The notes beneath the pieces are model-generated. The model did no database searches, had not been told where the DNA came from, and saw only the letters and a list, made by a program, of their open reading frames with translations. This document shows, in pieces, positions 2,317 through 33,327 of a stretch of DNA of 34,653 nt. This DNA comes from Fibrobacteria bacterium (lineage in GTDB: Bacteria > Fibrobacterota > Fibrobacteria > UBA11236), in contig JBJHDK010000021.1 in the NCBI GenBank assembly GCA_050486505.1, positions 1 to 34,653 of the forward strand. The letters are read 5' to 3'. Every line of letters begins with the position of its first letter. Within the stretch, counting starts at the first letter, position 1. The position numbers and the translations under genes are program-made.

Positions 2317-3102
2317 ATGGAGTTTCCCGCGCACGTCTCCGCCCTGCTGCGCGATCTCTCGCGCCTGCCCTACGAGAACCTGAGCAAGATCGTGGCGGCG
2401 CGGCGGGGCGCGTCGCGCGAGTCGATGCTCGACTTCTCCGCGACCTGGCTCGAGGATCATCTGCGCACGGGCATGGGCGGAACCTGCTTCGCGCTCACGC
2501 ATTGGCTCAAGCTGCGCATGGAGGCGCTGGGTTACTCCTCTGCATATCTCATGGCGGACAAGCCTGCCCCCGCGTGGCAACGACAGGGGAAAGGCGAGGG
2601 GCGGATCGAGCCCAACATCCACTGCGGACTGCTCTTTCTGCATGCGGGGCGCGAGTGGCTGCTCGACCCCGGCTATCTCATCTTCGACCCGCTGCAGTTG
2701 CCGCGCGGCGGCCTGTCCGTCGAAACCTTCCTGTCCCCCAATGCCGTGCGGCTCGAGGACGTTCCCGGCGAGGGCGTGTGGCGCTTGTGGACCGGGCCGC
2801 GCGGCAACCTGAAGCATCGTTTCGACTTCAGGAAGGAACCCGTCGATGACGCGGAATACCAACGCCACTGGGAAGCCTCGTACTCTTGGCCGATGATGGG
2901 GTATCCCGTGCTGAACCGCGTGGTCGGGGGAACGCAGTATTACTTGCAGAAGAACAGTCTTCTGATCCGTACCGCGGAAGGGGGAACGATGACCAAGCTC
3001 TCGCCCGAAGACGTCAAGCGCACTGCGATCGACCTGTTCGGGCTTCCGGAGGGATTGGTGGAGGAAGGGATGAGAGAATTGGGAATAAGAATTGAGAATT
3101 AA
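2317..3102 (+). CDS. Arylamine N-acetyltransferase family protein (261 aa)
   Basis: PYENL, GGTCF (catalytic Cys), NIHCGL (His) and LLDPG (Asp) give the Cys-His-Asp triad of NATs. ATG at 2317 preferred because it avoids overlap with the cytochrome gene. Confidence 0.85.
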   Translation: MEFPAHVSALLRDLSRLPYENLSKIVAARRGASRESMLDFSATWLEDHLRTGMGGTCFALTHWLKLRMEALGYSSAYLMADKPAPAWQRQGKGEGRIEPNIHCGLLFLHAGREWLLDPGYLIFDPLQLPRGGLSVETFLSPNAVRLEDVPGEGVWRLWTGPRGNLKHRFDFRKEPVDDAEYQRHWEASYSWPMMGYPVLNRVVGGTQYYLQKNSLLIRTAEGGTMTKLSPEDVKRTAIDLFGLPEGLVEEGMRELGIRIEN

Positions 3103-3246
3103 GAATTAAGAATTAAGAATTAAGAATTGAACGCAGAGACTGTGCTTGTGTGAAATGTCCATGCGCACTGTTCGTAATCACCGAACTCCGTTGTTCAAGT
3201 TTCCCCCCCTCCAATTCTTAATTCTTAATTCCAAATTCTTAATTCA
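3074..3246. repeat. Heptamer inverted-arm element, copy A: (AAGAATT)n - 84 bp core - (AATTCTT)n
   Basis: Left arm 3074-3128 and right arm 3213-3245, between convergent genes. Both flanking stop codons lie in or at the edge of the arms. Confidence 0.9.
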
Positions 3247-4425
3247 CTTAATCTCCACCAATCGAATCACGCCATCGCGTAATCCTGCGGCGAAGACGCG
3301 GCCGCGCGAGTCGTTGTCGAAGCTGCTGACATCTGGAACACGTCCGATGGTTTTGCGCGTCCAGCCGCCGTTCCCGTCCTCGCGGAGAACCCACACCGTC
3401 CCCAACCCGTAGTCGCCGAACACGTACCCCCCGTCGTAAGCGGAGTTCGGGTCCGCCGTGTAGAACACGCCGCCGGTGACGCTGATGGCTTCGTCGCGTT
3501 CGAGGTCCAATACGGGCATGGTCAGACCTTCGGCCGAACACCTCGATCGGGGGCGCGGTCTTCCCATGTTGTCCGGGTCGAAGCAGATGTTTCCCTCCCA
3601 AATGCGCCATCCCAGATTCGCCCCCTTGGGAACGAGGGTGATCTTTTCACGCAAGACCTGTCCGACGTCGCCGGCCCAGATCTCTCCCGTGTGCGGGTGA
3701 AAGGTCCACTTCCAGGGATTGCGCAGACCGAGCGCCCAGATCTCGGGCAGGTAGCCTTCCTCGCCGACGAAGGGATTGTCCGCCGGGATCGCGTACGGCT
3801 TTCCGTCGCTACGCCCGTCCACGTCGATGCGCAGGAATTTTCCGTGCAGGCTTCCAGGATCCTGCGCGAGGTTCCGCGGGTCGCCGCGGCTGCCGCCGTC
3901 TCCCATGCCGATGTGCAAGTACCCGTCGGGTCCGAAGGCGATGGTGCCCCCGTTGTGGTTGCGGTAGGGCTGGGGAATTTCCAGCAACACGCGCTGCGAT
4001 CCATCGGCATCGCGCAACAAGGATGCATCGGCGGTGCGCTCGGCGATGACCGTGGCGGATTTCCCCGTGCGCATGTAATTCACGTAATACTTGCGGTTCT
4101 CCTCGAAGCGAGGATGAAAGGCGATGCCGAGCAGCCCGCGTTCGTCGCCGCCGAAGCGGCCGCCCGCGACATCGATGCGCGCGAACGTCGCGGTGTTCCA
4201 GCCACCGTCGCCGTCCGGGGTGACTGCGACCAGACGGCCGGGTTGTTCCACCACGAGATAGTGTTCGGGCCTTCCGGGGATTTCCGCGAGTTGCACGGGG
4301 CGCTGGAAGGCGATGCCGAAGTAGTCGCGGATGGTGATTTCTCCGTTCCCGTCTGCGCGGGCATCGCGGGCGAGGAGCGACAGGGCGAGGAGAACAAGGG
4401 CGGAACGCAGGATGGGGGAACGCAT
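3244..4425 (-). CDS. PQQ-dependent sugar dehydrogenase / glucose-sorbosone dehydrogenase (GSDH) family protein 1; signal peptide; lacks the C-terminal module
   Basis: Start MRSPILRSALVLLALSLLARDARA at 4425. Motifs ERGLLGIAFHP, NHNGGTIAFGPDGYLHIGMGDGG, GKFLRIDVD, IPADNPF, EIWALGLRNPW, GDVGQ. The upstream part of the 3244..5196 ORF is a shadow frame. Confidence 0.9.
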   Translation of the reverse strand: MRSPILRSALVLLALSLLARDARADGNGEITIRDYFGIAFQRPVQLAEIPGRPEHYLVVEQPGRLVAVTPDGDGGWNTATFARIDVAGGRFGGDERGLLGIAFHPRFEENRKYYVNYMRTGKSATVIAERTADASLLRDADGSQRVLLEIPQPYRNHNGGTIAFGPDGYLHIGMGDGGSRGDPRNLAQDPGSLHGKFLRIDVDGRSDGKPYAIPADNPFVGEEGYLPEIWALGLRNPWKWTFHPHTGEIWAGDVGQVLREKITLVPKGANLGWRIWEGNICFDPDNMGRPRPRSRCSAEGLTMPVLDLERDEAISVTGGVFYTADPNSAYDGGYVFGDYGLGTVWVLREDGNGGWTRKTIGRVPDVSSFDNDSRGRVFAAGLRDGVIRLVEIK

Positions 4426-4512
4426 CCGGTTAAAATAGGCCGGGGGCTGGACGCAGGCAAACGCGAGGCAGGGGAATCCGCGCATTCCCGCGGAGGTGCC
4501 GCCGCTTGCGGG

Positions 4513-4546
4513 AAAAAAGAAAGGAACGCGCCATGGCTCGTTCCTT
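4513..4546 (-). terminator. Rho-independent terminator after GSDH-2
   Basis: Minus strand reads AAGGAACGAGCCATGGCGCGTTCCTT (stem-loop) then TCTTTTTT, about 20 nt downstream of the stop at 4566. Confidence 0.7.
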
Positions 4547-4565
4547 GGGATCGGACACTTCGGCG

Positions 4566-6008
4566 TTATTGGACGATGGTGATCAACTGCGGAGGGTTTG
4601 AGGACCCTTTTTCGCGGACCCACACGGCGCCGGAGACGTTGCCGCGCAGCGCGCGGCCGTCGAGCCCGCGAACCTCGAAGCGCTCCGGGGTGCGCAGGTA
4701 GTCGACGGGGGAGATCGGGCGGAAGGATGCTTCGCGCAGGGTTTTTCCGGGGTGTACGTTGACGGGCGTCGGAGCCAGAACCATGTCGGGGGACTCGAGG
4801 ATGAAGACGCGTCCCTGGTTCGCGGAGATGCTGCCGCCGGCGGTGGAGCTGAGGCTCACGGCGAAGATGCGCCCCGGCGTGTCGCGCTCGATGGACACGA
4901 CGTTGTTGACGGTACCGATCAAGGTGAGCGGGTCGGTGATCGCGGCGGAGTCGGCCGTGATCTCCGTTTCCGGGGCGCGGATCGCCCAGACGCGGTTCGA
5001 AATGTAGTCCCCCACGATGTAGGTGTTGTGGAATGCGGCAGTCGAGTCTCCCCGGAAGAAGGCCCCCCCGCTGATGGAGCGTCCCCAGGCATTGCCGGTG
5101 TTGTACTCGAACAGCGGCGGAATCATTCCGGAGCCCGTGCTGTTGTTGCAGGCGGTGTTGCCGCCATGACAGAAGGTTCCTTCCCAGATGCGCCATCCGA
5201 GGTTGCCCCCCCTGGGGACCCGTGTGACGACCTCACGGGCCGACTGCCCCACGTCGGCGGCCCAGAGCTGACCGGTGACGGGGTTGAACGTCCATCGCCA
5301 GGGATTGCGCAAACCCAGCGCCCAGATCTCGGGCAGGGTCCCCGCGCTGTCGATGAAGGGGTTGTCGGCGGGCACGGCATATTCCTTGCCGGGGTCCTGG
5401 GTGTTGACATCGATGCGCAGCATCTTTCCAAGCAGCGAGTTGCGGTTCTGCGCGCGGTTCTGCGTGTCGCCCGATCCGCCGCCGTCACCGGTGCCGATGT
5501 AGAGGTACCCGTCGGGCCCGAAACCGATCGTTCCACCGTTATGGTTGTTGTCGGGTTGGGTGATGACGAGGAGGTTGCGCTGGGGGTCGCCGGTGGCGGG
5601 GCGCATTCCGGTCGCGATCCGCTCCGCCAGCACCGTGGTCGATCCGGTCATGTAATAGACGTAGTAGCGGGGGTTGGTTTCGTATTCAGGGTGAAAGGCG
5701 AAGCCCAGCAGTCCCCGTTCCTCGTAATAGCCGGTGCCCGATCCGCCGGTGACGGTGATGGCGGCGGATTGCGCGCGCGTCCACGTCGTGCCATTCCATG
5801 CGACCGTCACGATCTGGCCCGGTTGTTCGAGCACGATGTAGGTGCTGTCCTGGCCGGGGTACTGGGCAAAGAACACCGGGCGGTTGAAGACCAGCGAGTC
5901 GGTGGCGGTCCTGAAGAAGTTGCGGAAGGTGACGGTGTTCGGGATGGTCGCCTCCGCCGCGACCCAGGAGGCCGCAAGCATCAGGACGGCTGCGCGGAGG
6001 GTCGACAT
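4566..6008 (-). CDS. GSDH/PQQ-dependent sugar dehydrogenase family protein 2 with C-terminal GLDGR module
   Basis: Signal peptide, ERGLLGFAFHP, NHNGG, GDGG, DNPF, GLRNPW, DVGQ. C-tail ...ERFEVRGLDGRALRGNVSGAVWVREKG... Confidence 0.9.
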   Translation of the reverse strand: MSTLRAAVLMLAASWVAAEATIPNTVTFRNFFRTATDSLVFNRPVFFAQYPGQDSTYIVLEQPGQIVTVAWNGTTWTRAQSAAITVTGGSGTGYYEERGLLGFAFHPEYETNPRYYVYYMTGSTTVLAERIATGMRPATGDPQRNLLVITQPDNNHNGGTIGFGPDGYLYIGTGDGGGSGDTQNRAQNRNSLLGKMLRIDVNTQDPGKEYAVPADNPFIDSAGTLPEIWALGLRNPWRWTFNPVTGQLWAADVGQSAREVVTRVPRGGNLGWRIWEGTFCHGGNTACNNSTGSGMIPPLFEYNTGNAWGRSISGGAFFRGDSTAAFHNTYIVGDYISNRVWAIRAPETEITADSAAITDPLTLIGTVNNVVSIERDTPGRIFAVSLSSTAGGSISANQGRVFILESPDMVLAPTPVNVHPGKTLREASFRPISPVDYLRTPERFEVRGLDGRALRGNVSGAVWVREKGSSNPPQLITIVQ

Positions 6009-6017
6009 GGCGAATCC

Positions 6018-7382
6018 TTACTGGACGATGGTGATGAGTTGCGGCGGGTTCGAAGATCCCTTTTCACGGACCCACACGGCACCGGAGACATTGCCGCGCA
6101 GGGCGCGGCCGTCGAGTCCGCGCACTTCGAAGCGTTCGGGATTGCGCAGAAAGTCTGCACGGGTGATCGGCTGCGCGGCTTCGCGCAACGCGCGTCCCGG
6201 TCGCACATTCACGGGTTCGGCGAGGATCATGTCGGGAGACTCGAGAACCCAGACGGTTCCATTGAGACTGCTGGCGAGAATCCGCCCTTTCGCGTCGCGG
6301 TCGAAGGAGACGACGTTGGTGATGGTTCCCAGGACCGTGGAGTCGGTCATCGCGGTTCCATTGCGGCGGTAGGCCCATACGCGGTTTGTCACGTAGTCGC
6401 CGAAGATGTAGGTCTCATGGAAGGCGGAGTTGGTGTCGCCGATGAAGAACTGTCCCCCGGTGATCGAGGCGCCCTGCGAGCGCTGGATGGAGATGGCGGG
6501 CATGGTCATGCCTGTCTGGCTGCACGGGCCGGCATAACAGAAGTTGCCTTCCCACATGCGCCAGCCGAGGTTCGCCCCCTTGGGGGCGATGGTGATTTCT
6601 TCGCGCATTTCCTGGCCCACATCGCCGACCCACAGGTCGTTTGTCAGCGGGTGGAAGCTCCACTTCCACGGGTTGCGCAGGCCGTAGGCCCAGATTTCAG
6701 GGAGGTAACCCGACTGGCCGACGAAGGGGTTGTCGGCAGGCACGGCGTACTCGCTGCCGGGATCCTGGGCGTTGACGTTGATGCGGAGAATGTTTCCGTG
6801 AATGTTGGTCGTGTTTTGCGCGCGGTTTCCGGGGTCTCCGCCGCTTCCTCCGTCTCCGAGACCGATGTAGAGATAGCCATCGGGTCCGAATTCGATGGTT
6901 CCGCCGTTATGGTTGCTGAAGGGCTGGGAAATGGTCATCAGGTTGCGTTGCGGGTCGTTCGTGCCCGGCCGCATGGTCACGGCGATGCGCTCGGCGATGA
7001 TGCTGTTCGAGCCCGAGATGTAATACACGTAGTACCTGGGGTTCGTGTTGAACTCGGGGTGAAAGGCGAAGCCGAGCAACCCCTGCTCGTTGCCTCCGCT
7101 GGTACCGCCGGTGACGGTGATGGAGGCCGAGTCGGTTTTGACCCAGGAGCCTCCCTGCCAGCCGACCGTGACGATGCGACCGTTCTGCTGCAACACGAGG
7201 AAGAGGCTGTCCTGGCCGGGGTAGGGGATCGCCTTCATCGGGCGGGCGAAGGTGATCGCTCCCGCGGTTCCTTCGGTCGGACCGAAGAAGTTGCGGAAGG
7301 TGACGTTGGTGGGAATGGGCTGCGCCGCCGTGAAGCCGACGGCCAGGGCGAGGGTCGCGAGGAATGCTGGTTTGCCGTGCAT
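6018..7382 (-). CDS. GSDH/PQQ-dependent sugar dehydrogenase family protein 3 with C-terminal GLDGR module
   Basis: Signal peptide MHGKPAFLATLALAVGFTAA, same propeller motifs, SD-like AAGGGA upstream. Confidence 0.9.
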   Translation of the reverse strand: MHGKPAFLATLALAVGFTAAQPIPTNVTFRNFFGPTEGTAGAITFARPMKAIPYPGQDSLFLVLQQNGRIVTVGWQGGSWVKTDSASITVTGGTSGGNEQGLLGFAFHPEFNTNPRYYVYYISGSNSIIAERIAVTMRPGTNDPQRNLMTISQPFSNHNGGTIEFGPDGYLYIGLGDGGSGGDPGNRAQNTTNIHGNILRINVNAQDPGSEYAVPADNPFVGQSGYLPEIWAYGLRNPWKWSFHPLTNDLWVGDVGQEMREEITIAPKGANLGWRMWEGNFCYAGPCSQTGMTMPAISIQRSQGASITGGQFFIGDTNSAFHETYIFGDYVTNRVWAYRRNGTAMTDSTVLGTITNVVSFDRDAKGRILASSLNGTVWVLESPDMILAEPVNVRPGRALREAAQPITRADFLRNPERFEVRGLDGRALRGNVSGAVWVREKGSSNPPQLITIVQ

Positions 7383-7460
7383 GGTGTTTCCCTTGTCGAA
7401 AAACGTGATGGATGCCCAAATATAGGTCCGATGGGGAGAGTGTCCGTCATTCCTCGCCCT

Positions 7461-7485
7461 CTCCCCGGAAATCCGCTCCGGGGAG
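7461..7485. other. GC-rich intergenic hairpin between GSDH-4 and GSDH-3
   Basis: CTCCCCGGA-AATCCGC-TCCGGGGAG 9-bp perfect stem. No clear U-tract on the coding (minus) strand. Confidence 0.45.
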
Positions 7486-7506
7486 GAGGATCCCCGTTTT
7501 TGCGTC

Positions 7507-9081
7507 CTAACGCATGATGGTGATGAGCCGCGGCGGCTCGTTCGATCCTTTCTCGCGGATCCAGACCGTCCCGGTGGCGGGGCCGCGCAGCATTCTGCCG
7601 TCGAGACCGTGGACCGTGAAACGGGACGGATCCCGCAGGTAATCCGCGGCGGTGAAGGCCGCCCCCCCCCGCCCCTGGATCCCGCGGATTCCGATGGGAG
7701 GCTCTTCCGGGTCGGTGGTATCGACGGCCGCGGGCACGTAGGCCTTTTCGAAATACGGCGATTCGATGATCAGCACCTGCCCCGAGTTGTTGCCGCCCAT
7801 GCTCACGGCGAACATGCGCCCCAGGGAGTCGCGGTCGAAGGAGACCACGTTGTTGATGTTGGGGAGCTGCGCCTGGTCCACCAGGCCCGAGTCGCTGAAG
7901 CGCGCCATCCACACGTAGTTGTAGATGTAGTCGCCGAAGAAGTAAACGTCGTGCAGGGCCGCGTTGGTGTCGCCCACGAAGAACGTCCCGCCCGTGACCG
8001 AGCGGACATCCTCGTTGTGCACGAGGCTCAACGCGGGCATCGTGATGGGGGTGGTGGCGCACAGCGCCTGAAAGGTCGCGTTGTTGCCGCGGTTGACCTG
8101 GTTGCCGCACTGGTCTCCTTCCCAGATGGGCCAGCCGAAGTAGCTTCCCTTGTTGACGCGCAGGATGTCGTCGCGGGTCACCCAGCCCACGTTACCCAGC
8201 CACATCTCGCCGGTGGTCGGATGAAAGTGCCATTTCCACGGGTTGCGAAGTCCCCAGGCCCACACCTCGGGGAGGAAGCCCGAGCTGTCCACGAAGGGGT
8301 TGTCGGCGGGGATGGCATATTCACGCCCGACCTCCATCGAGTCCACGTTGATGCGGATCACCTTGCCCAGCCAGCTGGCGCCGTTGAGGGACGGATTGTT
8401 GACCGAGTTCCCCAGCTCCTGATTACCGCCGTCGCCCGAGGTGTAGTACAGGTATCCGTCGTGCCCGAAGCCGATGCCGCCGCCCTTGTGGTCCCAGCCG
8501 GGTTGGCAGAAGTTGATCAGGATGCGTTCGGGATCGCTGGTGGCGGGGCGCATGGTGGCGCTGTCCGCGATGCGCTCGGCGATGATGGACCGCTCGTGCG
8601 TGGTGACGCCGCCCCCGGCCAGAGCCGAATCCTGCACGGTGATGTAGGAGACGTAGTACTTGCGGTTCTCGGTGTAGTTGGGGTGGAAGGCGAAGCCCAG
8701 CAGGCCGCGGCTTTCGTAGGTGCCGTTCGTGATGCCGCTGGAGGTCGCGCGCGGTTGGTGCACCGAGCATTTGTTGCCGCCGGTGCCGGTCACCACGGGC
8801 ACCTGGATGGTGGCGGTTTGCGCCTTCGTCCAGGCGGTTCCGTTCCATGCGACCGTGGTGAGACGGCCGACCTGTTCCATCACCATGTACACGCTGTCTT
8901 GCCCGGGATACTGGGCAAAGAGCAGCGGACGGCTGAAGGTCATGTTGCCGAAGTAGTTGCGGTAGGTAACCGAGTCGCGCAGGGCCTGCAGCGGTGCGGG
9001 CCCATCGGTGGCCAAGGCGGGTGTCGCGGGCATGAGTGCCAGCGGGAGGAACAGCAGTGCGCGGGTAATGAAGTGTTTCAC
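7507..9081 (-). CDS. GSDH/PQQ-dependent sugar dehydrogenase family protein 4 (divergent, with insertions) with C-terminal GLDGR module
   Basis: GTG start at 9081 overlaps the upstream TGA (GTGA) and has an AAGGA RBS. Signal peptide VKHFITRALLFLPLALMPATPALA. Motifs ESRGLLGFAFHP, DHKGG, GLRNPW, GNVGW. Confidence 0.88.
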   Translation of the reverse strand: MKHFITRALLFLPLALMPATPALATDGPAPLQALRDSVTYRNYFGNMTFSRPLLFAQYPGQDSVYMVMEQVGRLTTVAWNGTAWTKAQTATIQVPVVTGTGGNKCSVHQPRATSSGITNGTYESRGLLGFAFHPNYTENRKYYVSYITVQDSALAGGGVTTHERSIIAERIADSATMRPATSDPERILINFCQPGWDHKGGGIGFGHDGYLYYTSGDGGNQELGNSVNNPSLNGASWLGKVIRINVDSMEVGREYAIPADNPFVDSSGFLPEVWAWGLRNPWKWHFHPTTGEMWLGNVGWVTRDDILRVNKGSYFGWPIWEGDQCGNQVNRGNNATFQALCATTPITMPALSLVHNEDVRSVTGGTFFVGDTNAALHDVYFFGDYIYNYVWMARFSDSGLVDQAQLPNINNVVSFDRDSLGRMFAVSMGGNNSGQVLIIESPYFEKAYVPAAVDTTDPEEPPIGIRGIQGRGGAAFTAADYLRDPSRFTVHGLDGRMLRGPATGTVWIREKGSNEPPRLITIMR

Positions 9082-10598
9082 GGTGATCCTTTCGGGAGTC
9101 GTCGGTTTGTGAAATGCAGGAGGCGCGGTTCGCCTTTGGAAGTTTTCTCGCGCACCCATGCCGTTCCGGTCGGAGTTCCAGGCACGCGGCGGCCGTCGAG
9201 GCCGCGCACTTCGTAGCGGTCGGGGTTGAGCAAAACGTCGGCGGCCCGGATGGATGCATGGGGGACGGGCCGCGCCGGAGTTCCACGGACGTTGGCAGGA
9301 GGCGCAGGGATCATGTCGGGGGACTCCAAGATGAAAATCGCCCCGTTGTCGGAGGAGAAGTTGTAGGTGGTCGATCCCTGGTGGATGCTGACGGCGAACA
9401 CGCGTCCCCGCGCGTCCTTGTCGAAGGAGACGACATTCGGGACCGACGCGATTTGCGCGTATTCGAAGAGCACGCCGTCGGCCTGGCGCATGGCCCAGAC
9501 ACGGTTGGTACCGAAATCGCCGAAGATGTAGTGTTCATGAAAGGCCGACGTCGGGCTGCCCATGAAAAACACGCCGCCGGTCACGGAGATGCCTTGGGAA
9601 CGCGGCAGATCCAGGACGGGTTGCACGACCCCGTCCCAGCTGCAGGGACCCGAAAAGCAGTGGAACCCCTCCCACATCCTCCACCCCAGGTTCCCCCCCT
9701 TGGGAACCCTGGTGATTTTTTCGCGCGTGGATTGCCCGACATCTCCCAGCCAGATTTCTCCGGTATAGGGGTGGAAGTCCCACTTCCATGGGCTTCGGAG
9801 TCCTGTTGCCCAGATTTCGGGAAGATAGCCCGACTGGCCGACGAAGGGGTTGTCGGCGGGCACGGCATAGTTGCGTGTCGTGTCCTGGGGAAAGGCATCA
9901 GGGCCGTCCACGTCGATTCGGATCAGCTTGCCATGCAGCACGCCCGGGTTTTGCGCGAGATTGTCCGGGTCCCCCGCACCGCCGCCATCGCCGATGGCGG
10001 TGTAGAGGTAGCCGTCTGGGCCGAAGCGCAGGGTTCCGCCGCTGTGGTAGATGCGGGGTTTGGGCAAGGCCAGGACCACGCGCTGGGGGTTGTCTGAACC
10101 TTGCAGGAGCGTGGAATCGGCCGTGCGCTCCGCCAGCACGATGGTCCCGGGGTAAACGGTCCCCCCGGGGTAGGCCGGATCCTCGTAGTAGATGTAGTAC
10201 TTGCGGTTGTTCGCGTATTCCGGATGAAAGGCGAAGCCCAGCATACCCCCGTCGTCGGTGAGGCCGCCAGGCGTCCCTTCGCCCGGCCCCCGGGGACTGA
10301 CCGTTCCGGTGATTCCCCGCACGTACGCGCTGTCGAAGCGGGACTTCACCCATTCACCGTTTTCACGGTGCACGCGCGTGATCCCGCCGGATTGCCGGAG
10401 TACGAGGTAGGTGCTGTCGAAACCGGGGAAGGGTTTGAACAGCACGGGTCGCTCGAAGGTAAAGCCCTCGCCGAAGTAGTTGCGCACGGTCACGTTGTCG
10501 GGAATGGCGGCCTGAACCGTGACCGCGCCCGCCAGCAGAACCGGGACGGCCTTGAGCAAGGTCGTTGCCGCGGCGCTTGTTCCGGTCTTGCCACTCAT
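9078..10598 (-). CDS. GSDH/PQQ-dependent sugar dehydrogenase family protein 5 with C-terminal GLDGR module
   Basis: ATG at 10598 overlaps the upstream stop (ATGA). Signal peptide ...VLLAGAVTVQA. Motifs DDGGMLGFAFHP, YHSGG, GLRSPW, DVGQ. Confidence 0.88.
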   Translation of the reverse strand: MSGKTGTSAAATTLLKAVPVLLAGAVTVQAAIPDNVTVRNYFGEGFTFERPVLFKPFPGFDSTYLVLRQSGGITRVHRENGEWVKSRFDSAYVRGITGTVSPRGPGEGTPGGLTDDGGMLGFAFHPEYANNRKYYIYYEDPAYPGGTVYPGTIVLAERTADSTLLQGSDNPQRVVLALPKPRIYHSGGTLRFGPDGYLYTAIGDGGGAGDPDNLAQNPGVLHGKLIRIDVDGPDAFPQDTTRNYAVPADNPFVGQSGYLPEIWATGLRSPWKWDFHPYTGEIWLGDVGQSTREKITRVPKGGNLGWRMWEGFHCFSGPCSWDGVVQPVLDLPRSQGISVTGGVFFMGSPTSAFHEHYIFGDFGTNRVWAMRQADGVLFEYAQIASVPNVVSFDKDARGRVFAVSIHQGSTTYNFSSDNGAIFILESPDMIPAPPANVRGTPARPVPHASIRAADVLLNPDRYEVRGLDGRRVPGTPTGTAWVREKTSKGEPRLLHFTNRRLPKGSP

Positions 10599-12100
10599 CG
10601 GATCACCGTGACCAATTGCGGGACGGCATCGCTTCCGCGCAGCCGTACCCACACCGTTCCGGTCGGGACACCGTGAACGCGGCGGCCGTCGAGCCCGCGG
10701 ATTTCGTAGCGCGAGGGGTCGCGGCGCACGTCTGAAGCCAGGATGCCAGAACCGTGCGCCCTGCGCGGTTGCACTCCGCGGGCGAGACGCACAGGGGGGG
10801 ATGAAGGGGGAGCGGGAAGCATGTAGGGCGACTCCAGAATTTGCACCGTCCCTGTGTTGTTCCACCCAGAAGATGAGCGGATGCCCACAGCGAGCAGGCG
10901 GCCAAGGTAATCCTTATGGAAGGACACTACCGCGAATACGGTTGCGATCTGTGATCGCTCGAACACCGAATCGCCTTCGACGCGCATGGCCCAGACCCGG
11001 TTGGTTCCGTAGTCTCCGAAGATGTAAAGACCGTCGAAAGGACTTCCCGGCTCACCTTCGAAGAACGTGCCGCCGCTGACCGAGACCGATTCGCTGCGGG
11101 GAAGATCGAGCACAGGGCGTGTCATGCCATCCCAACTGCAGGGGCCGGAGAAACAGTGGAAGCCTTCCCACATTTTCCATCCCAGGTTGCCCCCCTCCGG
11201 GACTCGCGTCACTTTCTCGCGCGTGGATTGTCCGACGTCGCCCAACCAGATGTCCCGGGTATTCGGTTCGAAGTCCCAGCGCCAAGGGCTGCGCAGGCCG
11301 GTTGCCCAGATTTCCGGATAATAGGCGGACTGGCCCACGAAGGGGTTGTCCTGGGGGATGGCGTAGTTGCGATCGGGATCTTGAGGGAATGCGTCGGGGC
11401 CGTCGACGTCGATGCGGAGCATTTTGCCATGCAGGGTGCCAGGGGTTTGCGCACGGTTTCCGGGGTCTCCACCGCTGCCTCCGTCGCCGATGGCTGTGTA
11501 GAGGTAGCCGTCCTCGGCGAAGCGCAGGGTTCCGCCGCTGTGCCAAATGTAGGGTTTCGGGATGGCCAGGATCACCCGCTGGGGCGCATTCGATCCCGCA
11601 AGCAGGGTGGAGTCGGCCAAGCGCTCGGCGATCACGATGGTGCCGGGGTAAACGGTTCCCCCGGGGTATGCGGGGTCGACGTACTTGACGTAATACTTGC
11701 GGTTTTCCCCGTAGTTCGGGTGGAAGGCGAATCCCATCAGGCCGCCGTCGTCCGTCGTTCCTCCGGGATTCCCCTCGCCGGGGCCGCGCGGGTTTGTCCT
11801 GCCGTTCACGCCGGTGACATACACGCTGTCGAAGCGATGCTTCGTCCATGCGGTTGCGTCATGTTCCATGCGCACCATCCCGCCGGTTTGCTCCAGGACG
11901 AGGTAGGTGCTGTCGAAGCCCGGTATATCGAGAATCACGGTTGGCCGGTTGAAGGACGTGCCCTGTCCGAAAAAATTGCGGGTGGTCACGTCGCCAGGGA
12001 TCGCAGTCTGCACTTTGGGTGCCAAAAACGTGGCGACCATGGTAGCGAAAACGCAAAAAAAGACGCCCCTAGGGGAGGGGGTTGCGAAAGAGACGGGCAT
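10595..12100 (-). CDS. GSDH/PQQ-dependent sugar dehydrogenase family protein 6 with C-terminal GLDGR module
   Basis: Hydrophobic N-terminus. Motifs DDGGLMGFAFHP, WHSGG, GLRSPW, DVGQ. Closest paralogue of protein 5. Confidence 0.88.
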   Translation of the reverse strand: MPVSFATPSPRGVFFCVFATMVATFLAPKVQTAIPGDVTTRNFFGQGTSFNRPTVILDIPGFDSTYLVLEQTGGMVRMEHDATAWTKHRFDSVYVTGVNGRTNPRGPGEGNPGGTTDDGGLMGFAFHPNYGENRKYYVKYVDPAYPGGTVYPGTIVIAERLADSTLLAGSNAPQRVILAIPKPYIWHSGGTLRFAEDGYLYTAIGDGGSGGDPGNRAQTPGTLHGKMLRIDVDGPDAFPQDPDRNYAIPQDNPFVGQSAYYPEIWATGLRSPWRWDFEPNTRDIWLGDVGQSTREKVTRVPEGGNLGWKMWEGFHCFSGPCSWDGMTRPVLDLPRSESVSVSGGTFFEGEPGSPFDGLYIFGDYGTNRVWAMRVEGDSVFERSQIATVFAVVSFHKDYLGRLLAVGIRSSSGWNNTGTVQILESPYMLPAPPSSPPVRLARGVQPRRAHGSGILASDVRRDPSRYEIRGLDGRRVHGVPTGTVWVRLRGSDAVPQLVTVIR

Positions 12101-12249
12101 GTTCCCCTAATATAGGGGCGAATGCCGGATATCGCTGACGATAACTTCCGTTCCCCGAAGGACAAGATCCCGGGGGCCAAAATCTGCGAAATCAGGGGTG
12201 TGAGCGGACCAAAAAGGTCACTGAAGCGACCATTCGTGCGAAATAAACG

Positions 12250-14471: not shown

Positions 14472-14474
14472 GAT

Positions 14475-19634: not shown

Positions 19635-20169
19635 GCGAGCCGCTCCTGAGAGATGTTAGTTTCTGATTCGAAATTAATTAATGTCGTTAAACGATACAAA
19701 AGCTGATTATTTTGCGTCACAATGTGATGCGTGTGCCAAAATCTCTGGACGGAATTCAGCCTCTTCGTGGTCCGAGAATGGGGCGAACGGCTATCGCCGA
19801 GCCTACTGAAGCTGATGCCGTGATGCTTTCTTTTTCGGATTGCTCCAATCCCCCACAAGCGCCGGATCGCCCAGCATCATCTATCGCGAGTAGGATACTC
19901 AAAGGGCGTCACAAGAAAGATCGAGGGTGCTGAGCATCAACGTCTCATGCAAAAGAACACGGCTATTTCAGGGAGCGTTGCGGTAGTCTTGCTGTTTACC
20001 CAGCGCGGACGCGACGCATGAGTTCCTCATACGAAATCGGCTTACTCTTGCCGCTCTTGTAATCCGCAATATGTGCCCCTGCGATCTCCAAGTGCTCAGG
20101 AAGCATTTCATTGACGTGGCAAGCGAGAAGCAAATGCGCCATTTATTCAAAGATTGTGCCAATTTGGCG

Positions 20170-20230
20170 GATATTATGGAGTATACTCCAGATTATCACG
20201 GTTATTATGGAGTACACTCCATAATATCAC
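20170..20230. promoter_or_regulatory. Tandem pair of palindromic operator-like sites, 31-bp period
   Basis: TATTATGGAGTATACTCCAGATTATCAC (20172) and TATTATGGAGTACACTCCATAATATCAC (20203). The repeat is seen directly; a regulatory function is inferred. Confidence 0.5.
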
Positions 20231-20370
20231 ACCTCCTCGTGCCCTCATCACCGCTCCCAAAAACGACGAATCGCTGAATTTCGCGTTTTTAGGGCATCAA
20301 TCCTATAAATTCGAGGATTCAATCCAATAATTTCTTCGGTTCATACCCAATGATTTCGTCTATCAGGCAG

Positions 20371-27562: not shown

Positions 27563-29347
27563 ATGAACCCGACAGGATCCCCGAAGTTCTGGCTCATCGC
27601 AGCCACCCCCATCGTCTTTTTCCTTGCCGCCTGCCAGCGTGACGGCGTTCCCTCGGGAGCCCTTACCGAATTCCTGACCGACACCGTGACGGTGGAGGAG
27701 GGGGGGGAACATGATCCGGTCGCCAACCCTGCCGCGGTTCCCGGCGGCACCTACGTGACCTGGGGGGGATCTTCGCCGCGCTCCCTCAACATGTGGCTCG
27801 ACTACACCAGCTTCAACGCGCAGGTGATGGGGCTGCTCTTCGAGAACCTCGTCAGCCTGCACTCCACCCGTGACGAACCCGTGGGCGTGCTGGCCGAGAG
27901 CTGGGACGTTTCGCCCGACGGCAAGACATTCACGTTTCGCATCGATCGCCGCGCGCGCTGGAGCGACGGCAAGCCGATCACCGCGCGCGACATCCAGTTC
28001 TATTACGACGTGATCATGAATCCTGACCACATGACGCCGATCTTTCGCGTGGGCCTGCGCCGCTTCGACCGCCCCGAACTCCTCGACAGCCTGACCATCC
28101 GCATGACGGCCAATGAGGCCCACTGGAGTAATTTCTGGGAGGCCGCGAGCCTGACGGCCTTCCCCGCGCACGTCTGGGAAGGCAAGAACTTCAACGATAT
28201 CCTGTACGACTTCCCCGTGGTCAGCGGCCCCTACCGCCTCGGCACGGTGCGGCGCGAACGCTTCGTTGCCCTCGAGCGCCGCGCCGACTGGTGGGGACGC
28301 GCAAAGCGTTACAACCAGAACAAGTATAACTTTGCGCAGATCCGCTTCCGCTTCATGGAGGATCGCAACAAGGCGCTCGATGCCTTCCGCAAGGGGGACT
28401 TCGATTCCTATGCCGTGTACACGGCGTCGATCTGGGCGGAGCGCACTCGCTTCCCGCAAATCGAAAACGGCTGGGTGGCGCGGCAGGAGATCTACAACCG
28501 CGAGCCCATCGGCTTTCAGGGCTTCGCCGTCAACATGCGCCGCCCCCATCTGCAGGACGTGCGCGTGCGCCGCGCCTTGGCGCACCTCCTCAACCGTGAG
28601 TTGATGAATGACCGCTTGATGTACAACCAGTATTTCCTGCTCAATTCATTCTTCCCCGATCTGTTCCCCGACAACGTGAACCCCGATGCCCCCATGCTGG
28701 AGTATGATCCGGAGAAGGCCCGCCAGTTGTTCGCGGAGGCGGGATGGACCCCCGGGCCCGACGGCGTTCTCGTCAGGGACGGTCAGCGCTTCGAGGTGTC
28801 GTTCCTCACGCCCACCGCCGACATGCGCCACTACAATGTTTATCTCGAGGACTTGCGTGCCGCGGGCGTGGCGGCCCGCATCGAGCAGATGTCGCAGTCG
28901 GCCATCCGCCGCCGCCTCGACTCGCACGACTTCGATCTTTACTGGGCGGCGTGGGGCGCGGGCCGCCTGCGCAACCCCGAGACCCTGTGGAGCTCGGAGA
29001 CGGCGGACCAGCCCGGCTCGAACAATTTCCCCGGCCTGCGCGATGCGCTGGTGGATTCGCTGATCGAAGCCCAGAAAACGGAGATGGATCTGGGGCGTCG
29101 CAATGCGATGCTGGCGCAAATGGACGCCCGGCTGACGGAGATGGTGCCGTATGTGCTTCTGTGGCAATCCGACCGCACGCGCCTTTTGTACTGGAATCGT
29201 TTCGGGAAGCCGGAACACGTTTTGGACAAGTACGGGCGCGAGGACGCGGCGTTGGTGTACTGGTTCGTGGATGCCGAGAAGGAGCGCAAGCTGCGCGCCC
29301 GCGAGCCGATGCCGGTGGCGCCGGAGATTGTGCGGTACGAAGAATGA
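27563..29347 (+). CDS. yejA: Peptide ABC transporter substrate-binding lipoprotein, YejA-like
   Basis: Lipobox LAAC; ANPAAVPGG, ARWSDGKPITA.D, SGPY, RADWWG...YNF, DVRVRRAL. Followed by yejB/yejE-like permeases. Confidence 0.8.
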   Translation: MNPTGSPKFWLIAATPIVFFLAACQRDGVPSGALTEFLTDTVTVEEGGEHDPVANPAAVPGGTYVTWGGSSPRSLNMWLDYTSFNAQVMGLLFENLVSLHSTRDEPVGVLAESWDVSPDGKTFTFRIDRRARWSDGKPITARDIQFYYDVIMNPDHMTPIFRVGLRRFDRPELLDSLTIRMTANEAHWSNFWEAASLTAFPAHVWEGKNFNDILYDFPVVSGPYRLGTVRRERFVALERRADWWGRAKRYNQNKYNFAQIRFRFMEDRNKALDAFRKGDFDSYAVYTASIWAERTRFPQIENGWVARQEIYNREPIGFQGFAVNMRRPHLQDVRVRRALAHLLNRELMNDRLMYNQYFLLNSFFPDLFPDNVNPDAPMLEYDPEKARQLFAEAGWTPGPDGVLVRDGQRFEVSFLTPTADMRHYNVYLEDLRAAGVAARIEQMSQSAIRRRLDSHDFDLYWAAWGAGRLRNPETLWSSETADQPGSNNFPGLRDALVDSLIEAQKTEMDLGRRNAMLAQMDARLTEMVPYVLLWQSDRTRLLYWNRFGKPEHVLDKYGREDAALVYWFVDAEKERKLRAREPMPVAPEIVRYEE

Positions 29348-29378
29348 GTTACGAGTTGCGAGTTACAAGTTACGAGTT
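29344..29378 (+). repeat. Heptamer array, variant single arm (ACGAGTT-type x5), copy B
   Basis: ATGAGTT ACGAGTT GCGAGTT ACAAGTT ACGAGTT, overlapping the yejA stop. Confidence 0.85.
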
Positions 29379-29453
29379 GGGCGGGATCCAGAGCGCTCTA
29401 GTTGATGTTGTACGCCACACCCCTTGGTTTATACAAGATCCGAAAAAATTCGG

Positions 29454-29945
29454 ATGAGCGGCGTCAAGGTTCCAAACGAGAAATTCCTTTTCTCTGCCAG
29501 GAGTTTTTACAAAGCCACTAAATGGTTACATGAACAGAAGCTTGAAGGTGTACCAATTATTGTGAATGGGGTTTTGGCACTCGAACTTTACCTTAAAAGC
29601 TTGGATGCTTCGGTTGTAGTTGAAGGTGAACTTAATAGTGCAGATGGCGTTTCTTTTAGGACAATCCCCAACAATCCTACACATGGACTTGCAAAACTTT
29701 TTGACTCCCTTTCTCCCAACACTCAAGATCAGCTAGCAAGCGCTTTCGGAAAGATCCCAGTCCATTCGTATGAACATGGAAGAGACGTCGATTTGGATTT
29801 TCGACAATGCCTCGAATTATACGAGGGGGCATTTGTTGCATGGAGATATGTGTTCGAGCGGAAGAATGTGCGCCCTATAAACATCACTGTTCTCCTTGAG
29901 ATTCTTCGTTTTCTGGATCACACGATTCCGTCGATTAAAGAATGA
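29454..29945 (+). CDS. HEPN domain-like protein, low GC, inserted in the yej operon (163 aa)
   Basis: ALELYLKSL, THGLAKLF and FVAWRY match the HEPN pattern (aE..LKa...H.l..L...RY). AT-rich codons; stop overlaps the yejB ATG. Confidence 0.65.
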   Translation: MSGVKVPNEKFLFSARSFYKATKWLHEQKLEGVPIIVNGVLALELYLKSLDASVVVEGELNSADGVSFRTIPNNPTHGLAKLFDSLSPNTQDQLASAFGKIPVHSYEHGRDVDLDFRQCLELYEGAFVAWRYVFERKNVRPINITVLLEILRFLDHTIPSIKE

Positions 29946-30955
29946 AATCCTACATCCTCCGCCGCCTCTTGCTGATGATCCCGACCTTGCTCGGGATCTC
30001 GATCGTGTGCTTTGCCCTGACGCAATTCGTGCCCGGCGGTCCGGTGGAACAGATGATCTCGCAGATCCAGTCTTCCGCGGGGGATCGGGGGGCGGACGCT
30101 TCGCGGGCCATCACGCCGGAGGAGCTCGAGAACATCAAGCGCTATTACGGATTCGACAAGCCCGTGCATCTGCGCTACCTCGAATGGATGGGAAACATTC
30201 TCCGCCTCGACATGGGGCGCTCCTTCTCCTACGGCGAGCCCGCGTGGGACGTGATCAAATCGAAGTTTCCCATCAGCCTGTTCTTCGGGGTCACGTCCTT
30301 CATTCTCTCCTACCTGATCTGCATTCCGCTGGGGCTCGCCAAGGCGCTGCGCCACAAGTCCGGGTTCGACACGACCACGTCGGCGTTGCTCTTCGCGGGC
30401 TACGTCGTGCCCGGCTTCGCGCTGGGCGTTCTGCTGCTCACTTTCTTCGCAGGGGGGCAGTACCTCGACTGGTTCCCCCTCTCGGGCATTGTCTCCGACG
30501 ACTGGGAATATCTCTCTCCCTGGGGCAAGGTCACCGATTTCCTGTGGCACATGACCTTGCCGCTGATCTGTTACATGGCGGGAGAATTCGCCTTTCTCAC
30601 GTTGCTCATGAAAAACGCCCTGCTCGAGGAGATGTCGAAGGATTACATGCGCACGGCCCTGTTGCAGGGCATGACCTTCAAGCAGGCCGTGTGGAGGCAC
30701 GCGCTGCGCAATGCCCTTATCCCGCTGGCGACGCGCGCGGGAGAGATCTTCACGCTGATGTTCGCGGGCGCGCTGCTCATCGAGAAGGTGTTCGACATCG
30801 ACGGCATGGGCCTGCTCGTGTTCACCTCCATCGAAAACCGCGACTACAACGTCGTGCTGGGCATCATCCTGTTCTCCAGCTTCCTCGCCATGCTGGGGAG
30901 GCTTTTCTCAGACATCCTGTATGTGTGGGTGGATCCGAGGATCAGGTTTAAATGA
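29942..30955 (+). CDS. yejB: Peptide ABC transporter permease, YejB-like
   Basis: YILRRLLLMIPTLLGI...QFVPGGPVEQMI, YGFDKP, LLIEKVF.IDGMGLL, YVWVDPRI. Confidence 0.85.
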   Translation: MKSYILRRLLLMIPTLLGISIVCFALTQFVPGGPVEQMISQIQSSAGDRGADASRAITPEELENIKRYYGFDKPVHLRYLEWMGNILRLDMGRSFSYGEPAWDVIKSKFPISLFFGVTSFILSYLICIPLGLAKALRHKSGFDTTTSALLFAGYVVPGFALGVLLLTFFAGGQYLDWFPLSGIVSDDWEYLSPWGKVTDFLWHMTLPLICYMAGEFAFLTLLMKNALLEEMSKDYMRTALLQGMTFKQAVWRHALRNALIPLATRAGEIFTLMFAGALLIEKVFDIDGMGLLVFTSIENRDYNVVLGIILFSSFLAMLGRLFSDILYVWVDPRIRFK

Positions 30956-31135
30956 ATTACGAATTACGCCCTATGAGGTCGCGGAGCGAACGAATCATTA
31001 AGAATTATGAATTAAGCTCCATGAGGTTGCGGAGCAAACGAACCATTAAGAATGAAAGCCAAGCAGTGGAGTTTAAAATCTTGCCGCCACTTTCATTTCT
31101 AATTCTTAATTCTCAATTCTTAATTCTTAATTCCC
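30952..31135. repeat. Heptamer inverted-arm element, copy C, with internal 48-bp tandem duplication
   Basis: ATGAATT ACGAATT at the yejB stop, 48-bp units starting at 30954 and 31002, right arm AATTCTT-type x5 at 31101-31135. Confidence 0.85.
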
Positions 31136-31154
31136 GCGTGAGGGCGGTGTGACC

Positions 31155-32186
31155 ATGTTCTCCGACCTCACACGCGATCGCTTCCGCCGGTTCCGTTCCA
31201 TGAAGCGTGCATGGTGGTCGCTGTGCATTCTCGCGTGCGTGTTCGTCCTTTCCCTTTTCAGCGAGATGATCTCGAACGACCGTCCCCTGTTGCTGGGCTA
31301 CAAGGGCGCCATCCACACGCCGGTGTTCAAGTTCTACCCCGGCACACAATTCGGCCTGCCGCATGGCACCCAGGTGGATTACCACGGATTACGGGAAAAC
31401 CCGCAGTTCAGGGAGGCCGGGGGCTGGATGGTGTTCCCCCCGCTGCGATGGGGTCCCTACCGGGCCAACCTTGACCAACCGGGGAACCCTCCGCACGCGC
31501 CCTCGACGCGCCATTGGCTGGGTACGGACAACACCGGGCGTGACGTGCTCTCCCGCTTGTTGTACGGCTTCCGGCTCTCGATGGTCTTCGCATTGACGAT
31601 TTGCGCGCTGGCCGCCTTCCTGGGAATCTTCATCGGCGGCCTGCAGGGCTGGCTCGGTGGAAAAACCGACATCATCGGCCAGCGATTCATCGAGATCTGG
31701 TCGGCGCTTCCGTTTCTCTACGTCGTCATCCTGCTGGGCGCGATCTATGGACGCAGTTTCTGGCTGCTGGTCTTCGTTGTCTCGATCTTTTCATGGATCG
31801 GCATGTCGTATTACTTGCGCGGCGAGTTCTACCGTCTCAAGAACCTGAATTACGTGAAAGCCGCGCGTGCCCTGGGAATTCCCGCACCGCGTATCTTCGT
31901 GCGGCACGTTCTTCCCAATGCGCTGACCCCCGTCATCACCGTGCTCCCCTTCCTGCTGATCTCGGGCATCGGCTCGCTGACCTCGCTCGATTTCCTCGGG
32001 TTCGGCCTGCAACCTCCCGCGCCCTCTTGGGGCGAAATGCTGCGGCAGGGACTCGACAACCTGCACGCGCCCTGGTTGGCGTTCTCCGCGACCACGGCAC
32101 TGTTCTTCACGCTTTTGTTGGCGACGTTCGTCGGGGAAGGGTTGCGGGAGGCATTCGACCCGAAGTCCGATGGAAGGATGGAGTGA
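31155..32186 (+). CDS. yejE: Peptide ABC transporter permease, YejE-like
   Basis: RFRRFRSMKRAWWSL, LSLFSEMISNDRPLL, HWLGTDNTGRDVL.RL.YGFR.S, LTSLDFLGFGL, GEGLREAFDP. Alternative GTG start at 31149. Confidence 0.85.
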   Translation: MFSDLTRDRFRRFRSMKRAWWSLCILACVFVLSLFSEMISNDRPLLLGYKGAIHTPVFKFYPGTQFGLPHGTQVDYHGLRENPQFREAGGWMVFPPLRWGPYRANLDQPGNPPHAPSTRHWLGTDNTGRDVLSRLLYGFRLSMVFALTICALAAFLGIFIGGLQGWLGGKTDIIGQRFIEIWSALPFLYVVILLGAIYGRSFWLLVFVVSIFSWIGMSYYLRGEFYRLKNLNYVKAARALGIPAPRIFVRHVLPNALTPVITVLPFLLISGIGSLTSLDFLGFGLQPPAPSWGEMLRQGLDNLHAPWLAFSATTALFFTLLLATFVGEGLREAFDPKSDGRME

Positions 32187-32188
32187 CG

Positions 32189-32347
32189 AAGAATTAAGAA
32201 TTACGAATTAAGAATTACGAATGAGGGGAACTCACGAATGGCATGGATTCCTGAACTTCATTTGCTTTGCGTCTGGATGCTTCACACAAGCACCCCCTTT
32301 GTGTTCAATTCTTAATTCGTAATTCTTAATTCGTAATTCATAATTTT
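32189..32347. repeat. Heptamer inverted-arm element, copy D
   Basis: Left arm AAGAATT/ACGAATT at 32189-32223, 83-bp core, right arm AATTCTT/AATTCGT at 32307-32347. Confidence 0.9.
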
Positions 32348-32352
32348 CCCCC

Positions 32353-33168
32353 ATGCTTCCCTCCCGTTCCTCCCTCGCGGAACTGATCTCGTCCCGGATT
32401 GAACGCGATTCTGCCGCCCTCACCGCAGCATGGAGCGGCTCCGGGCCGGTGCGCCACGTCGCGATCGATGACTTGCTTCCCGAGGCGGAGGCCCGCGCGG
32501 TGGCCGGGGCGTTTCCCTCACGGGAGAAACTGGGGCGCTACGACAGCCTGAAGGAGCGCAAAAGCATCGGCGTGGACATGGAAGCGTATGATCCCCTGAT
32601 GAAGGAAATCACCTTCGCGTTTCAGGACGCGCGGGTGTTGCGGGCCGTCGAGGTGATCACGGGAATCGCGACCCTGAATCCGGACCAAAACCTCTACAGC
32701 AGCGGGCTGAGTTCGATGGGTGACGGGGATTACCTGAACCCTCACATCGACAACTCCGGGAACCCCCTCTTGAACCAATATCGTCGCATCAATCTGCTGT
32801 ACTATGTCACCCCGGATTGGGATCCGGAGTGGGGTGGAAACCTGGAATTGTGGGACGCACGGCGCGCCGATCCGGTGCGGGTTGAGCCGCGTTTCAACCG
32901 GCTTGTGCTCATGAACACCAACCGGACGTCGTTTCATTCGGTGAACCCGATCCGGGGCGCGGGCGGGCTGCGCCGCAACTGCGTGTCAAACTACTACTTC
33001 TCGCCCGAATCTCCCGAGGGGTACGACTACTTCCACGTGACGAGTTTCCGCGGCCGCCCGGAGCAGCCGGTACGCGACGCCTGGTTGCGCTTCGACGCCT
33101 GGGCGCGCGGGATGTATCGCAGGTTTCGCCCCCGCAAAGCGAGCGACATTCGGCACAAGTACGGGTGA
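32353..33168 (+). CDS. 2OG-Fe(II) oxygenase (prolyl-hydroxylase-like)
   Basis: YLNPHID (HxD), RRINLLYY, WGGNLELWD, PRFNRLV, SFHSV (His), RNC (2OG-binding Arg). Confidence 0.9.
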   Translation: MLPSRSSLAELISSRIERDSAALTAAWSGSGPVRHVAIDDLLPEAEARAVAGAFPSREKLGRYDSLKERKSIGVDMEAYDPLMKEITFAFQDARVLRAVEVITGIATLNPDQNLYSSGLSSMGDGDYLNPHIDNSGNPLLNQYRRINLLYYVTPDWDPEWGGNLELWDARRADPVRVEPRFNRLVLMNTNRTSFHSVNPIRGAGGLRRNCVSNYYFSPESPEGYDYFHVTSFRGRPEQPVRDAWLRFDAWARGMYRRFRPRKASDIRHKYG

Positions 33169-33171
33169 GTT

Positions 33172-33327
33172 CAATTACGAATTAAGAATTGGGAATTGGG
33201 AATTAAGAATTAACGTGACAAACTCGGGTGCCTGCTCTCGGTGATCCCCTCACTCCAAGTTTATTCGCACTACTCAAAGCTCTCCCTGTGTTCAATTCTT
33301 AATTCCCAATTCTTAATTCATAATTCA
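33172..33327. repeat. Heptamer inverted-arm element, copy E
   Basis: Left arm ACGAATT AAGAATT GGGAATT GGGAATT AAGAATT ending at 33211, 82-bp core, right arm 33294-33326 overlapping the HAD stop. Confidence 0.9.

Follow-up and report, generated by a model that had tools for sequence, protein, structure and literature searches.

Among the closest described systems to the elements reported here are the GGGAATC arrays of Xanthomonas and the intervening sequence (IVS) of the Coxiella burnetii 23S rRNA gene. PMC4692102 treats the GGGAATC arrays as simple repeats, and the accessible parts of that paper report no common spacer and no link to four-helix-bundle proteins. In its supplement, one array overlaps the start of XCC0516, whose structure is described as a homopentamer (PMC4990558). 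The latter source also reports that RNase III cuts the heptamer-bearing Coxiella IVS in vitro (PMC4990558). For Avd, a protein of diversity-generating retroelements (DGRs), a pentamer with positive charge has been described; it attaches to a defined stretch of RNA and works together with a reverse transcriptase (PMC6182149). We analyzed a 34,653-nucleotide contig of a Fibrobacteria bacterium (contig C21 of genome G000; 2.4 Mb, 63% GC, 99% complete), hereafter the window. It contains four AT-rich elements, A, B, D and E, in which convergent arms of tandem NNGAATT-type units enclose a short spacer, or core. Congeners of G000 (among them G001, G003, G004 and G008-G011) were used for comparison.

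The window elements are part of a dispersed family. A scan of G000 with a relaxed NNGA(A/G)TT-type pattern identified 173 arms in 99 clusters. Sixty-four clusters have a left arm followed by a right arm, 34 are solo arms, one is mixed and none has the right-then-left order. Spacer lengths are not random genome-wide: 31 of the 63 measurable spacers are 79-87 bp long (one cluster with overlapping arm calls was left out). These 31 cores, picked by arms alone, also resemble one another. Their 465 pairs score 37.8, compared to 17.9 for shuffled sequences and 23.7 for random genomic DNA, and 56% of the pairs are above the 99th percentile of the shuffles. An iterated hidden Markov model (HMM), seeded with 24 of the 31 cores after removal of seven weak ones, converged on a G000 family of 43 members of about 83 bp (E<0.01). 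When each core was left out in turn, all 43 scored at least 10.7 bits, with a median of 31. The best of 215 shuffles reached 0.9, and the core similarity is thus significant against shuffled controls. Family members account for 30 of the 42 arm-defined spacers of 76-99 bp, and 40 of the 43 have at least three arm units on both sides.

The initial annotation had proposed that the window elements are diverged copies of one element in both orientations. This holds for A, D and 41 other sites. The core of E is marginal, since it scores 0.2 bits against the family HMM, within the shuffled range; its anchored profile gives a z of 4.8, or 2.6 with the first 10 bases held fixed (3 of 150 shuffles as high). 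The proposal does not hold for B, which contains no family core. Its spacer is about 53 bp long, and its left arm carries two copies of a separate insert of about 34 bp.

The core of about 83 bp has been copied together with its arms, as one unit, into 43 or more unrelated sites, for the most part long ago; we hold this conclusion with high confidence. The unit was copied and not grown in place, because copies lie in both orientations between unrelated genes, and the corresponding junctions of related genomes are empty or otherwise filled. The opposite reading, that these are simple-sequence repeats grown in place via replication slippage and kept as hairpins at gene ends, was offered for Xanthomonas, and slippage is discussed in PMC4692102. 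It would fit the variable number and type of the units, the 34 solo arms and the several types of intergenic period-7 array in G000 (270 arrays). However, slippage cannot account for one 83-bp spacer recurring at 43 unrelated sites, nor for the strict converging polarity (64 versus 0), and we consider it very unlikely as the origin of the elements. It may maintain the arms. The common core shows that gene-less copies spread as units.

The cores have a median identity of 63% to the majority sequence and about 51% to one another. Their changes are dominated by transitions and have no adenine bias (20% at A and 27-31% at other bases); adenine-specific mutagenesis of the DGR type was rejected on these values. 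The pattern is near star-like, and the spread is therefore mostly old. One pair of cores is 87% identical and located between unrelated gene pairs. [quoted passage not shown] Duplicates at contig ends reflect assembly overlap, C76:9389-9574 with C105:1-115 and C26:63-198 with C90:1-75. The C90 copy is outside the 43, and the element at the C76/C105 ends is not a member of the family.

Occupancy differs among related genomes. The oppB-oppC junction, which is the site of element B, is empty or nearly so in five of 11 congeners. In G001, G008, G009 and G010 it is filled by elements whose arm types differ and whose spacers are unrelated, and in G003 and G004 by other repeats. The oppA-oppB junction is likewise variable among congeners. 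At the sites of A, D and E, the element is lacking in congeners with a readable junction. The arm type of the window is common to G001 and G011 (166 and 99 pattern matches, respectively). From G011, G001 and G009 we read 40 stretches, one of them without a pair. Some of the resulting 39 paired elements are at sites filled in G000 and others at sites empty in G000, and G001 and G011 have an element at one junction where the G000 genes overlap. The presence/absence differences at orthologous junctions are thus found between species. At the strain level, contigs of X1 and X2, from sequencing runs, either end at the arms or leave them uncovered. Together with junctions that are differently filled and with the 87%-identical pair between unrelated genes, they support the earlier suggestion of a non-autonomous mobile element.

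Four spacers in G011 and one in G001 resemble the G000 core (z 3.5-8.7), and the family therefore predates the split. Spacers in G011 are 18-90 bp long, which fits decay by deletion, and the core length looks inherited rather than selected. Outside the genus, the exact core pattern has no match in the genome contig database. It has 72 matches in metagenome contigs, none with arms. A sequence-only core model has 48 matches in G000 and at most two each in six of 31 other genomes of the bacterial family; outside G000, its matches are flanked by arms only in G001, G004 and G011. In the sets searched, the core was not found beyond the genus.

The arms and the core appear to have evolved differently. 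The initial annotation had suggested a structured RNA with a long stem. The stem is present and is formed from the arms only, with energies of -41 to -54 kcal/mol. Its z is -6.3 to -7.5 for A, D and E, and -1.6 for B. The core did not bear out the suggestion. RNAalifold predicted no pairs in 42 of the 43 cores. For a four-pair helix joining the G-rich and C-rich core ends, 136-401 of 500 shuffles scored as high, it was no better than slid controls, and no covariation was found. Left and right arms of the same element share unit types (0.63 versus 0.42 for random pairs; 0 of 5000 permutations as high; 40 elements). Because unit types co-vary within an element, either homogenisation or selection for pairing acts on the arms, as the core decays. 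The number of units per arm peaks at five (70 of 173 arms), and 37 arms have four. The best-kept piece is the word GA(A/G)C(A/G)C, which borders the arm on its inner side in 43 of 196 arms and on its outer side in three (background 1.9%). We infer that the core travels as a passenger and keeps a conserved junction word, rather than being a folded RNA.

A structured non-coding or cis-regulatory RNA with the core under selection is highly improbable. The first 30 bases of the core are kept better than the remainder (72% versus 59%), and on one strand the folding of individual cores is slightly better than that of shuffles (mean z -0.54), as such an RNA would predict. Against it are the lack of a consensus structure and of covariation in the end helix, the absence of any Rfam match in the window, and the lack of a tie between the orientation of the core and transcription (15 of 23 toward starts, p 0.21). 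The core is also largely lost in congeners. An outward sigma-70 promoter in the core (TTCACA / 17 / TTCAAT, seen by eye in A and D) was rejected on the same orientation counts; the motif has no extra conservation, and a scan did not report the site. A terminator role was rejected as well, with no terminator-like site within 30800-33500.

The suggested link between heptamer arms and TIGR02436 genes was confirmed and proved to be subfamily-specific. G000 has four TIGR02436 matches, of which the C44 and C6 genes are flanked by other heptamer arms. The C44 IVP (the four-helix-bundle protein of PF05635/TIGR02436) matches PDB 2gsc, which is XCC0516 with five chains (E 5e-23). In five congeners, 22 IVP matches were read. 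Judged by eye, most of them have inverted arrays of 7- or 8-base units around them, each of its own type. Two of the 22 carry the arm type of the window. The gene is intact in G001 (PF05635, 83.6 bits) and frameshifted in G011, and these two are full-length relatives of the kind, with a gene between the arms, that the initial annotation had called for. At the same junction in G000, these arms surround a 137-bp gene-less spacer.

The comparison was extended to the best 80 of 554 confirmed relatives of the G001 protein in the genome contig database, taken together with five further loci and the two congener loci. The best 80 span over a dozen phyla. Eighty-three loci were counted with both flanks (two loci without a match and two duplicates were excluded). 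Arms are found on both sides in 65 of the 83 and on at least one side in 77, compared to none of 74 far flanks. In other IVP subfamilies, arms are found in one of 22 loci, a small set from one order. In a quick tree of the IVPs, the arm label needs nine changes, compared to 25 when shuffled; kin share labels, so this indicates clustering and not co-evolution.

Three further observations concern IVP genes and their sites. The fourth four-helix-bundle gene of G000 (C45:1-500) is apparently frameshifted and followed by TGGAC-type 9-mer repeats. In three genomes (G000:C46:11400-11480, L049 and L041), one IVP orthologue has upstream of it a TGTGA-6 bases-TCAC palindrome, which we take to be CRP/FNR-like. 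This suggests that the orthologue is a regulated, domesticated copy. At junctions on contigs C5, C31, C50, C80, C84 and C11 where congeners have a heptamer element or an IVP cassette, G000 often has a different palindromic repeat; several repeat types therefore compete for the same junctions.

The elements are closely fitted to gene junctions. Gene calls were made with a simple purpose-made caller, and start calls are approximate. In 52 of 63 elements, at most 31 bases are left on both sides, so that the element fills the whole junction. Such elements are found in each of the four gene orientations, and the direction of the core is not tied to transcription. Among 67 stop-facing ends, 39 overlap the gene end, 27 of these at -2, -9 or -16, in a 7-base phase. 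An arm of element A supplies the final codons of an acetyltransferase gene, which congeners encode with other sequence. With the approximate start calls, the terminal unit TA(A/C)(T/C)TT is found at 24 of 60 start-facing ends, compared to one of 67 stop-facing ends and one of 439 internal units. Throughout G000, TAnnnT peaks 12-14 bases before ATG (237 of 1491 ATG genes). A peak at this distance is the signature expected of leaderless transcripts. Judging from sequence, start-facing arm ends with this terminal unit probably serve as -10 boxes, as in element D. Such a role would explain how divergent gene pairs with only an element between them manage. This shift of arm ends toward a -10-like unit where they face starts suggests that the host has come to rely on the elements.

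We propose, at a probability of about 0.55, that the elements are gene-less, non-autonomous derivatives of an IVS-like cassette, in which a PF05635 gene lies between inverted heptamer arrays, and that they were mobilised in trans. The arms would be the cis signal, read as a fold-back hairpin by a cognate IVP pentamer, with about five units per arm matched to five subunits per ring. The cognate IVP would have acted in trans from a cassette since lost from G000. The hairpin intermediate may be RNA or single-stranded DNA, and strand transfer would be performed by a host or transient enzyme. Transcribed copies could be cut by RNase III, like rRNA intervening sequences; an RNase III gene is present in G000. 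The host may retain many copies since the arms now supply stops and leaderless -10 boxes.

A number of observations weigh against this proposal. G000 contains no reverse transcriptase (no PF00078 match in the 99% complete genome), and its only Y1 transposase match is weak and partial, on C123. Flanking direct repeats show no excess (2.50 versus 2.58; 64 elements), a comparison in which copies are old, ends fuzzy and congeners distant. No close cognate IVP is found in G000. The core HMM finds nothing under E 1 in the sequences flanking 85 loci of the subfamily, and the core scores z of only 2.2 and 1.4 against the leaders of the two congener cassettes. The idea that the core is an IVP cassette leader, whose lengths of 86 and 82 match, was rejected because this similarity is not significant. 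The 137-bp spacer of G000 is unrelated to the cassette at the same junction (z 0.5 and 1.1). Across 81 genomes of the class, the arm-pair count tracks the cognate gene only loosely. G028 has many arm pairs and only distant IVPs; conversely, the gene is present in G073 and G083, where one narrow arm-pair pattern has no match. Arms could also stay with the gene by co-inheritance alone. Because the core is traceable to no cassette, descent from an IVP cassette rests on the arms and the common site. Orthologous cores are clearly related at only one of 14 sites common to G000 and congeners; agreement in core orientation at these sites is mixed, and that metric is unreliable.

The low number of clearly related orthologous cores also fits a spread of the core by gene conversion. 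Arm pairs from decayed cassettes would have pre-existed at many junctions, and recombination between homologous arms would have copied one spacer over others and flipped it. Several family sites of G000 carry arms of the same type with unrelated or shorter spacers in G001, G009 or G011, and arms are homogenised within an element, both in agreement with such a process. However, arm homology is patchy and extends over only 28-40 bp, the placement of arm pairs at new junctions still has to be accounted for, and G011 has a family core at a site without one in G000 (L240, z 8.7). We consider gene conversion unlikely as the source of the family.

The third possibility, which we judge quite unlikely, is a conventional MITE mobilised by a since-lost DDE or HUH transposase, with the IVP gene as a passenger in longer copies. 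The elements are short, gene-less and dispersed in both orientations with inverted ends, G000 retains the one weak Y1 match, and MITEs are reported to supply promoters and RNase III sites (PMC10969869). Their ends are inverted repeats that pair, yet they are variable-length arrays with no fixed end, and no duplication signal is seen. Moreover, the gene enclosed by arms at the examined loci is PF05635, and the arm type follows the IVP subfamily. In a transposase survey that was not exhaustive, we found no autonomous insertion sequence with the same ends; the enclosed genes are PF05635, and none lies between paired solo arms in G000.

Descent from an IVS-like cassette would have a broader implication, which we put forward tentatively and consider doubtful at present. 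The elements may represent a transposase-free mobile class. A pentameric, Avd-like four-helix-bundle protein would recognise about five heptamers in each arm by a code specific to its subfamily, choose gene junctions as targets and also mobilise gene-less passengers in trans. The 43-copy family would then be the equivalent of MITEs, adopted by the host as stops and leaderless promoters. If true, such a pentamer-read class would account for both the heptamer repeats of bacteria and the PF05635 family. Intergenic heptamer repeats and IVP proteins become jointly testable, with a single protein subfamily and a single heptamer type on the one hand, and a pentamer and arms of about five units on the other.

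All four window elements are located between protein genes and not inside an rRNA gene. The coordinates, arms and core lengths (84, 83 and 82 bp for A, D and E) of the initial annotation were all recovered when rechecked in the sequence. So were the 13-mer common to A (3142-3154) and D (reverse complement at 32281-32293), the 8-mer common to A (3177-3184) and E (33238-33245), and AGTTT at offset 70 in the latter pair. In element A, the upstream N-acetyltransferase gene ends inside the left arm of NNGAATT units (3074..3128, plus strand), at a TAA stop (3100-3102). The 84-bp core of A (3129..3212, plus strand) is 80% identical to the family majority sequence. The right arm (3213..3247, minus strand) holds the TGA stop (3244-3246, minus strand) of a convergent glucose/sorbosone dehydrogenase-family gene. 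Element D has its left arm (32189..32223, plus strand) two bases past the oppC stop (32184-32186), and its 83-bp core (32224..32306, minus strand) is a family member in reverse orientation. The last unit of its right arm (32307..32348, minus strand) is TAATTT (32341-32346), six bases ahead of the ATG (32353) of a 2-oxoglutarate-Fe(II) oxygenase gene, the spacing of the -10-like boxes before starts in G000. The left arm of element E (33170..33211, plus strand) is one base past the oxygenase stop (33166-33168). Its 82-bp core (33212..33293, minus strand) is a marginal, strongly diverged member in reverse orientation, and the right arm (33294..33328, minus strand) holds the TGA stop (33325-33327, minus strand) of a convergent HAD hydrolase gene.

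Element B has a more complex left arm (30952..31013, plus strand), which overlaps the oppB stop (30953-30955) and is interrupted by the first copy of a nested small hairpin insert (30966..30999, plus strand). The second copy follows (31014..31047, plus strand). The spacer (31048..31100, no strand assigned) includes one further arm unit and is outside the 83-bp core family, and the right arm (31101..31135, minus strand) is upstream of oppC. The insert consists of ATGAGG, a short hairpin and GAATCA. In G000, 12 of 19 loose matches to it are in an arm-like context, including an arm of the C6 IVP gene. Congeners have up to 25 matches each, and by eye their hairpins vary yet keep pairing; viral contigs have no match to the pattern. 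The insert has the look of another, smaller element with heptamer arms as its target. Elhai et al. in 2008 reportedly described cyanobacterial short tandemly repeated repetitive (STRR) sequences and small dispersed repeats, with tiny repeats nested in heptamer arrays. This nesting is like that of the insert. That work is cited in PMC2884548.

A solo arm of NNGAGTT units (29346..29378, plus strand), missed by the initial annotation, directly follows the stop of the oppA-like gene, and no right-arm partner is seen up to oppB. Just behind it, between oppA and oppB, is a 173-codon open reading frame (ORF; 29424-29945, 43% GC) with no match in Pfam or NCBIfam. Its look-alikes in the Atlas (0.93-0.94) are hypothetical proteins, one cluster having HEPN in 13% of its members. 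The ORF is absent directly before oppB in the 10 congeners examined, and it is possibly foreign cargo. Elsewhere in the window, six tandem glucose/sorbosone dehydrogenase-family (pyrroloquinoline quinone-type) ORFs occupy 3244-13632 on the minus strand, all far under the TIGR03606 cut-off, and an AT-rich non-coding region (20168-20358) contains a 31-bp repeat in two copies and a weak 22-bp array. Genome-wide, G000 has 270 intergenic period-7 arrays versus 23 in genes, and 37 intergenic 8-mer arrays. Such an array is found in 160 of 905 intergenic gaps of at least 100 bp, and several arm families coexist.

The ORF-bearing 23S rRNA IVS of Coxiella burnetii (S23p / PF05635 / TIGR02436, PMC4990558) is similar in its long terminal inverted-repeat stem, tandem heptamers and sporadic presence, and the same protein family is encoded by full-length relatives of the window elements. 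Unlike the IVS, the window copies are at protein-gene junctions, have no ORF (spacers of 53-84 bp) and occur in dozens per genome with a common spacer. A PF05635 ORF is found only in the full-length relatives in G001 and, frameshifted, G011. The GGGAATC pairs of Xanthomonas (PMC4692102) are likewise intergenic near gene ends, always convergent (70 in Xcc) and have a modal unit number, and one is at the start of XCC0516. The window arms differ in their unit and have no G-quadruplex potential. Heptamer arrays beside start and stop codons are also formed by the TAACTGA direct repeats of Beggiatoaceae (PMC4679880). These and the cyanobacterial STRR arrays are described mostly as unpaired direct repeats, unlike the paired arms of the window. 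Arms are not REP-like (repetitive extragenic palindromic). In REP/REPIN systems with a REP-associated tyrosine transposase (RAYT), GC-rich palindromes of 20-40 bp flank a Y1 transposase; G000 has the one partial Y1 match on C123. The DGR protein Avd (PMC6182149) has a related fold, and the C44 IVP has a weak bAvd match (E 5e-5, under the cut-off). Unlike a DGR system, G000 contains no reverse transcriptase, changes in the core are not adenine-specific and no template/variable repeat pair is seen.

Bacterial MITEs such as Correia, ERIC and RUP (PMC10969869) are also short, non-coding and dispersed, have inverted ends and exert promoter and RNase III effects on their neighbours. Unlike them, the window family has no fixed terminal inverted repeat, and no duplication signal or transposase partner was found. 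The component parts have been published separately (PMC4692102, PMC4679880, PMC4990558, PMC10969869). A full-text literature search, which lacked most subscription journals, found no paper that joins heptamer repeats with the four-helix-bundle IVP, and none for TIGR02436. The family works like a MITE of an IVS-like cassette yet fits neither class, having no transposase partner or duplication found on the one hand, and being ORF-less and outside rRNA on the other. What appears to be new here is the amplified common core, the match of arms to IVP subfamily and the -10-like ends.

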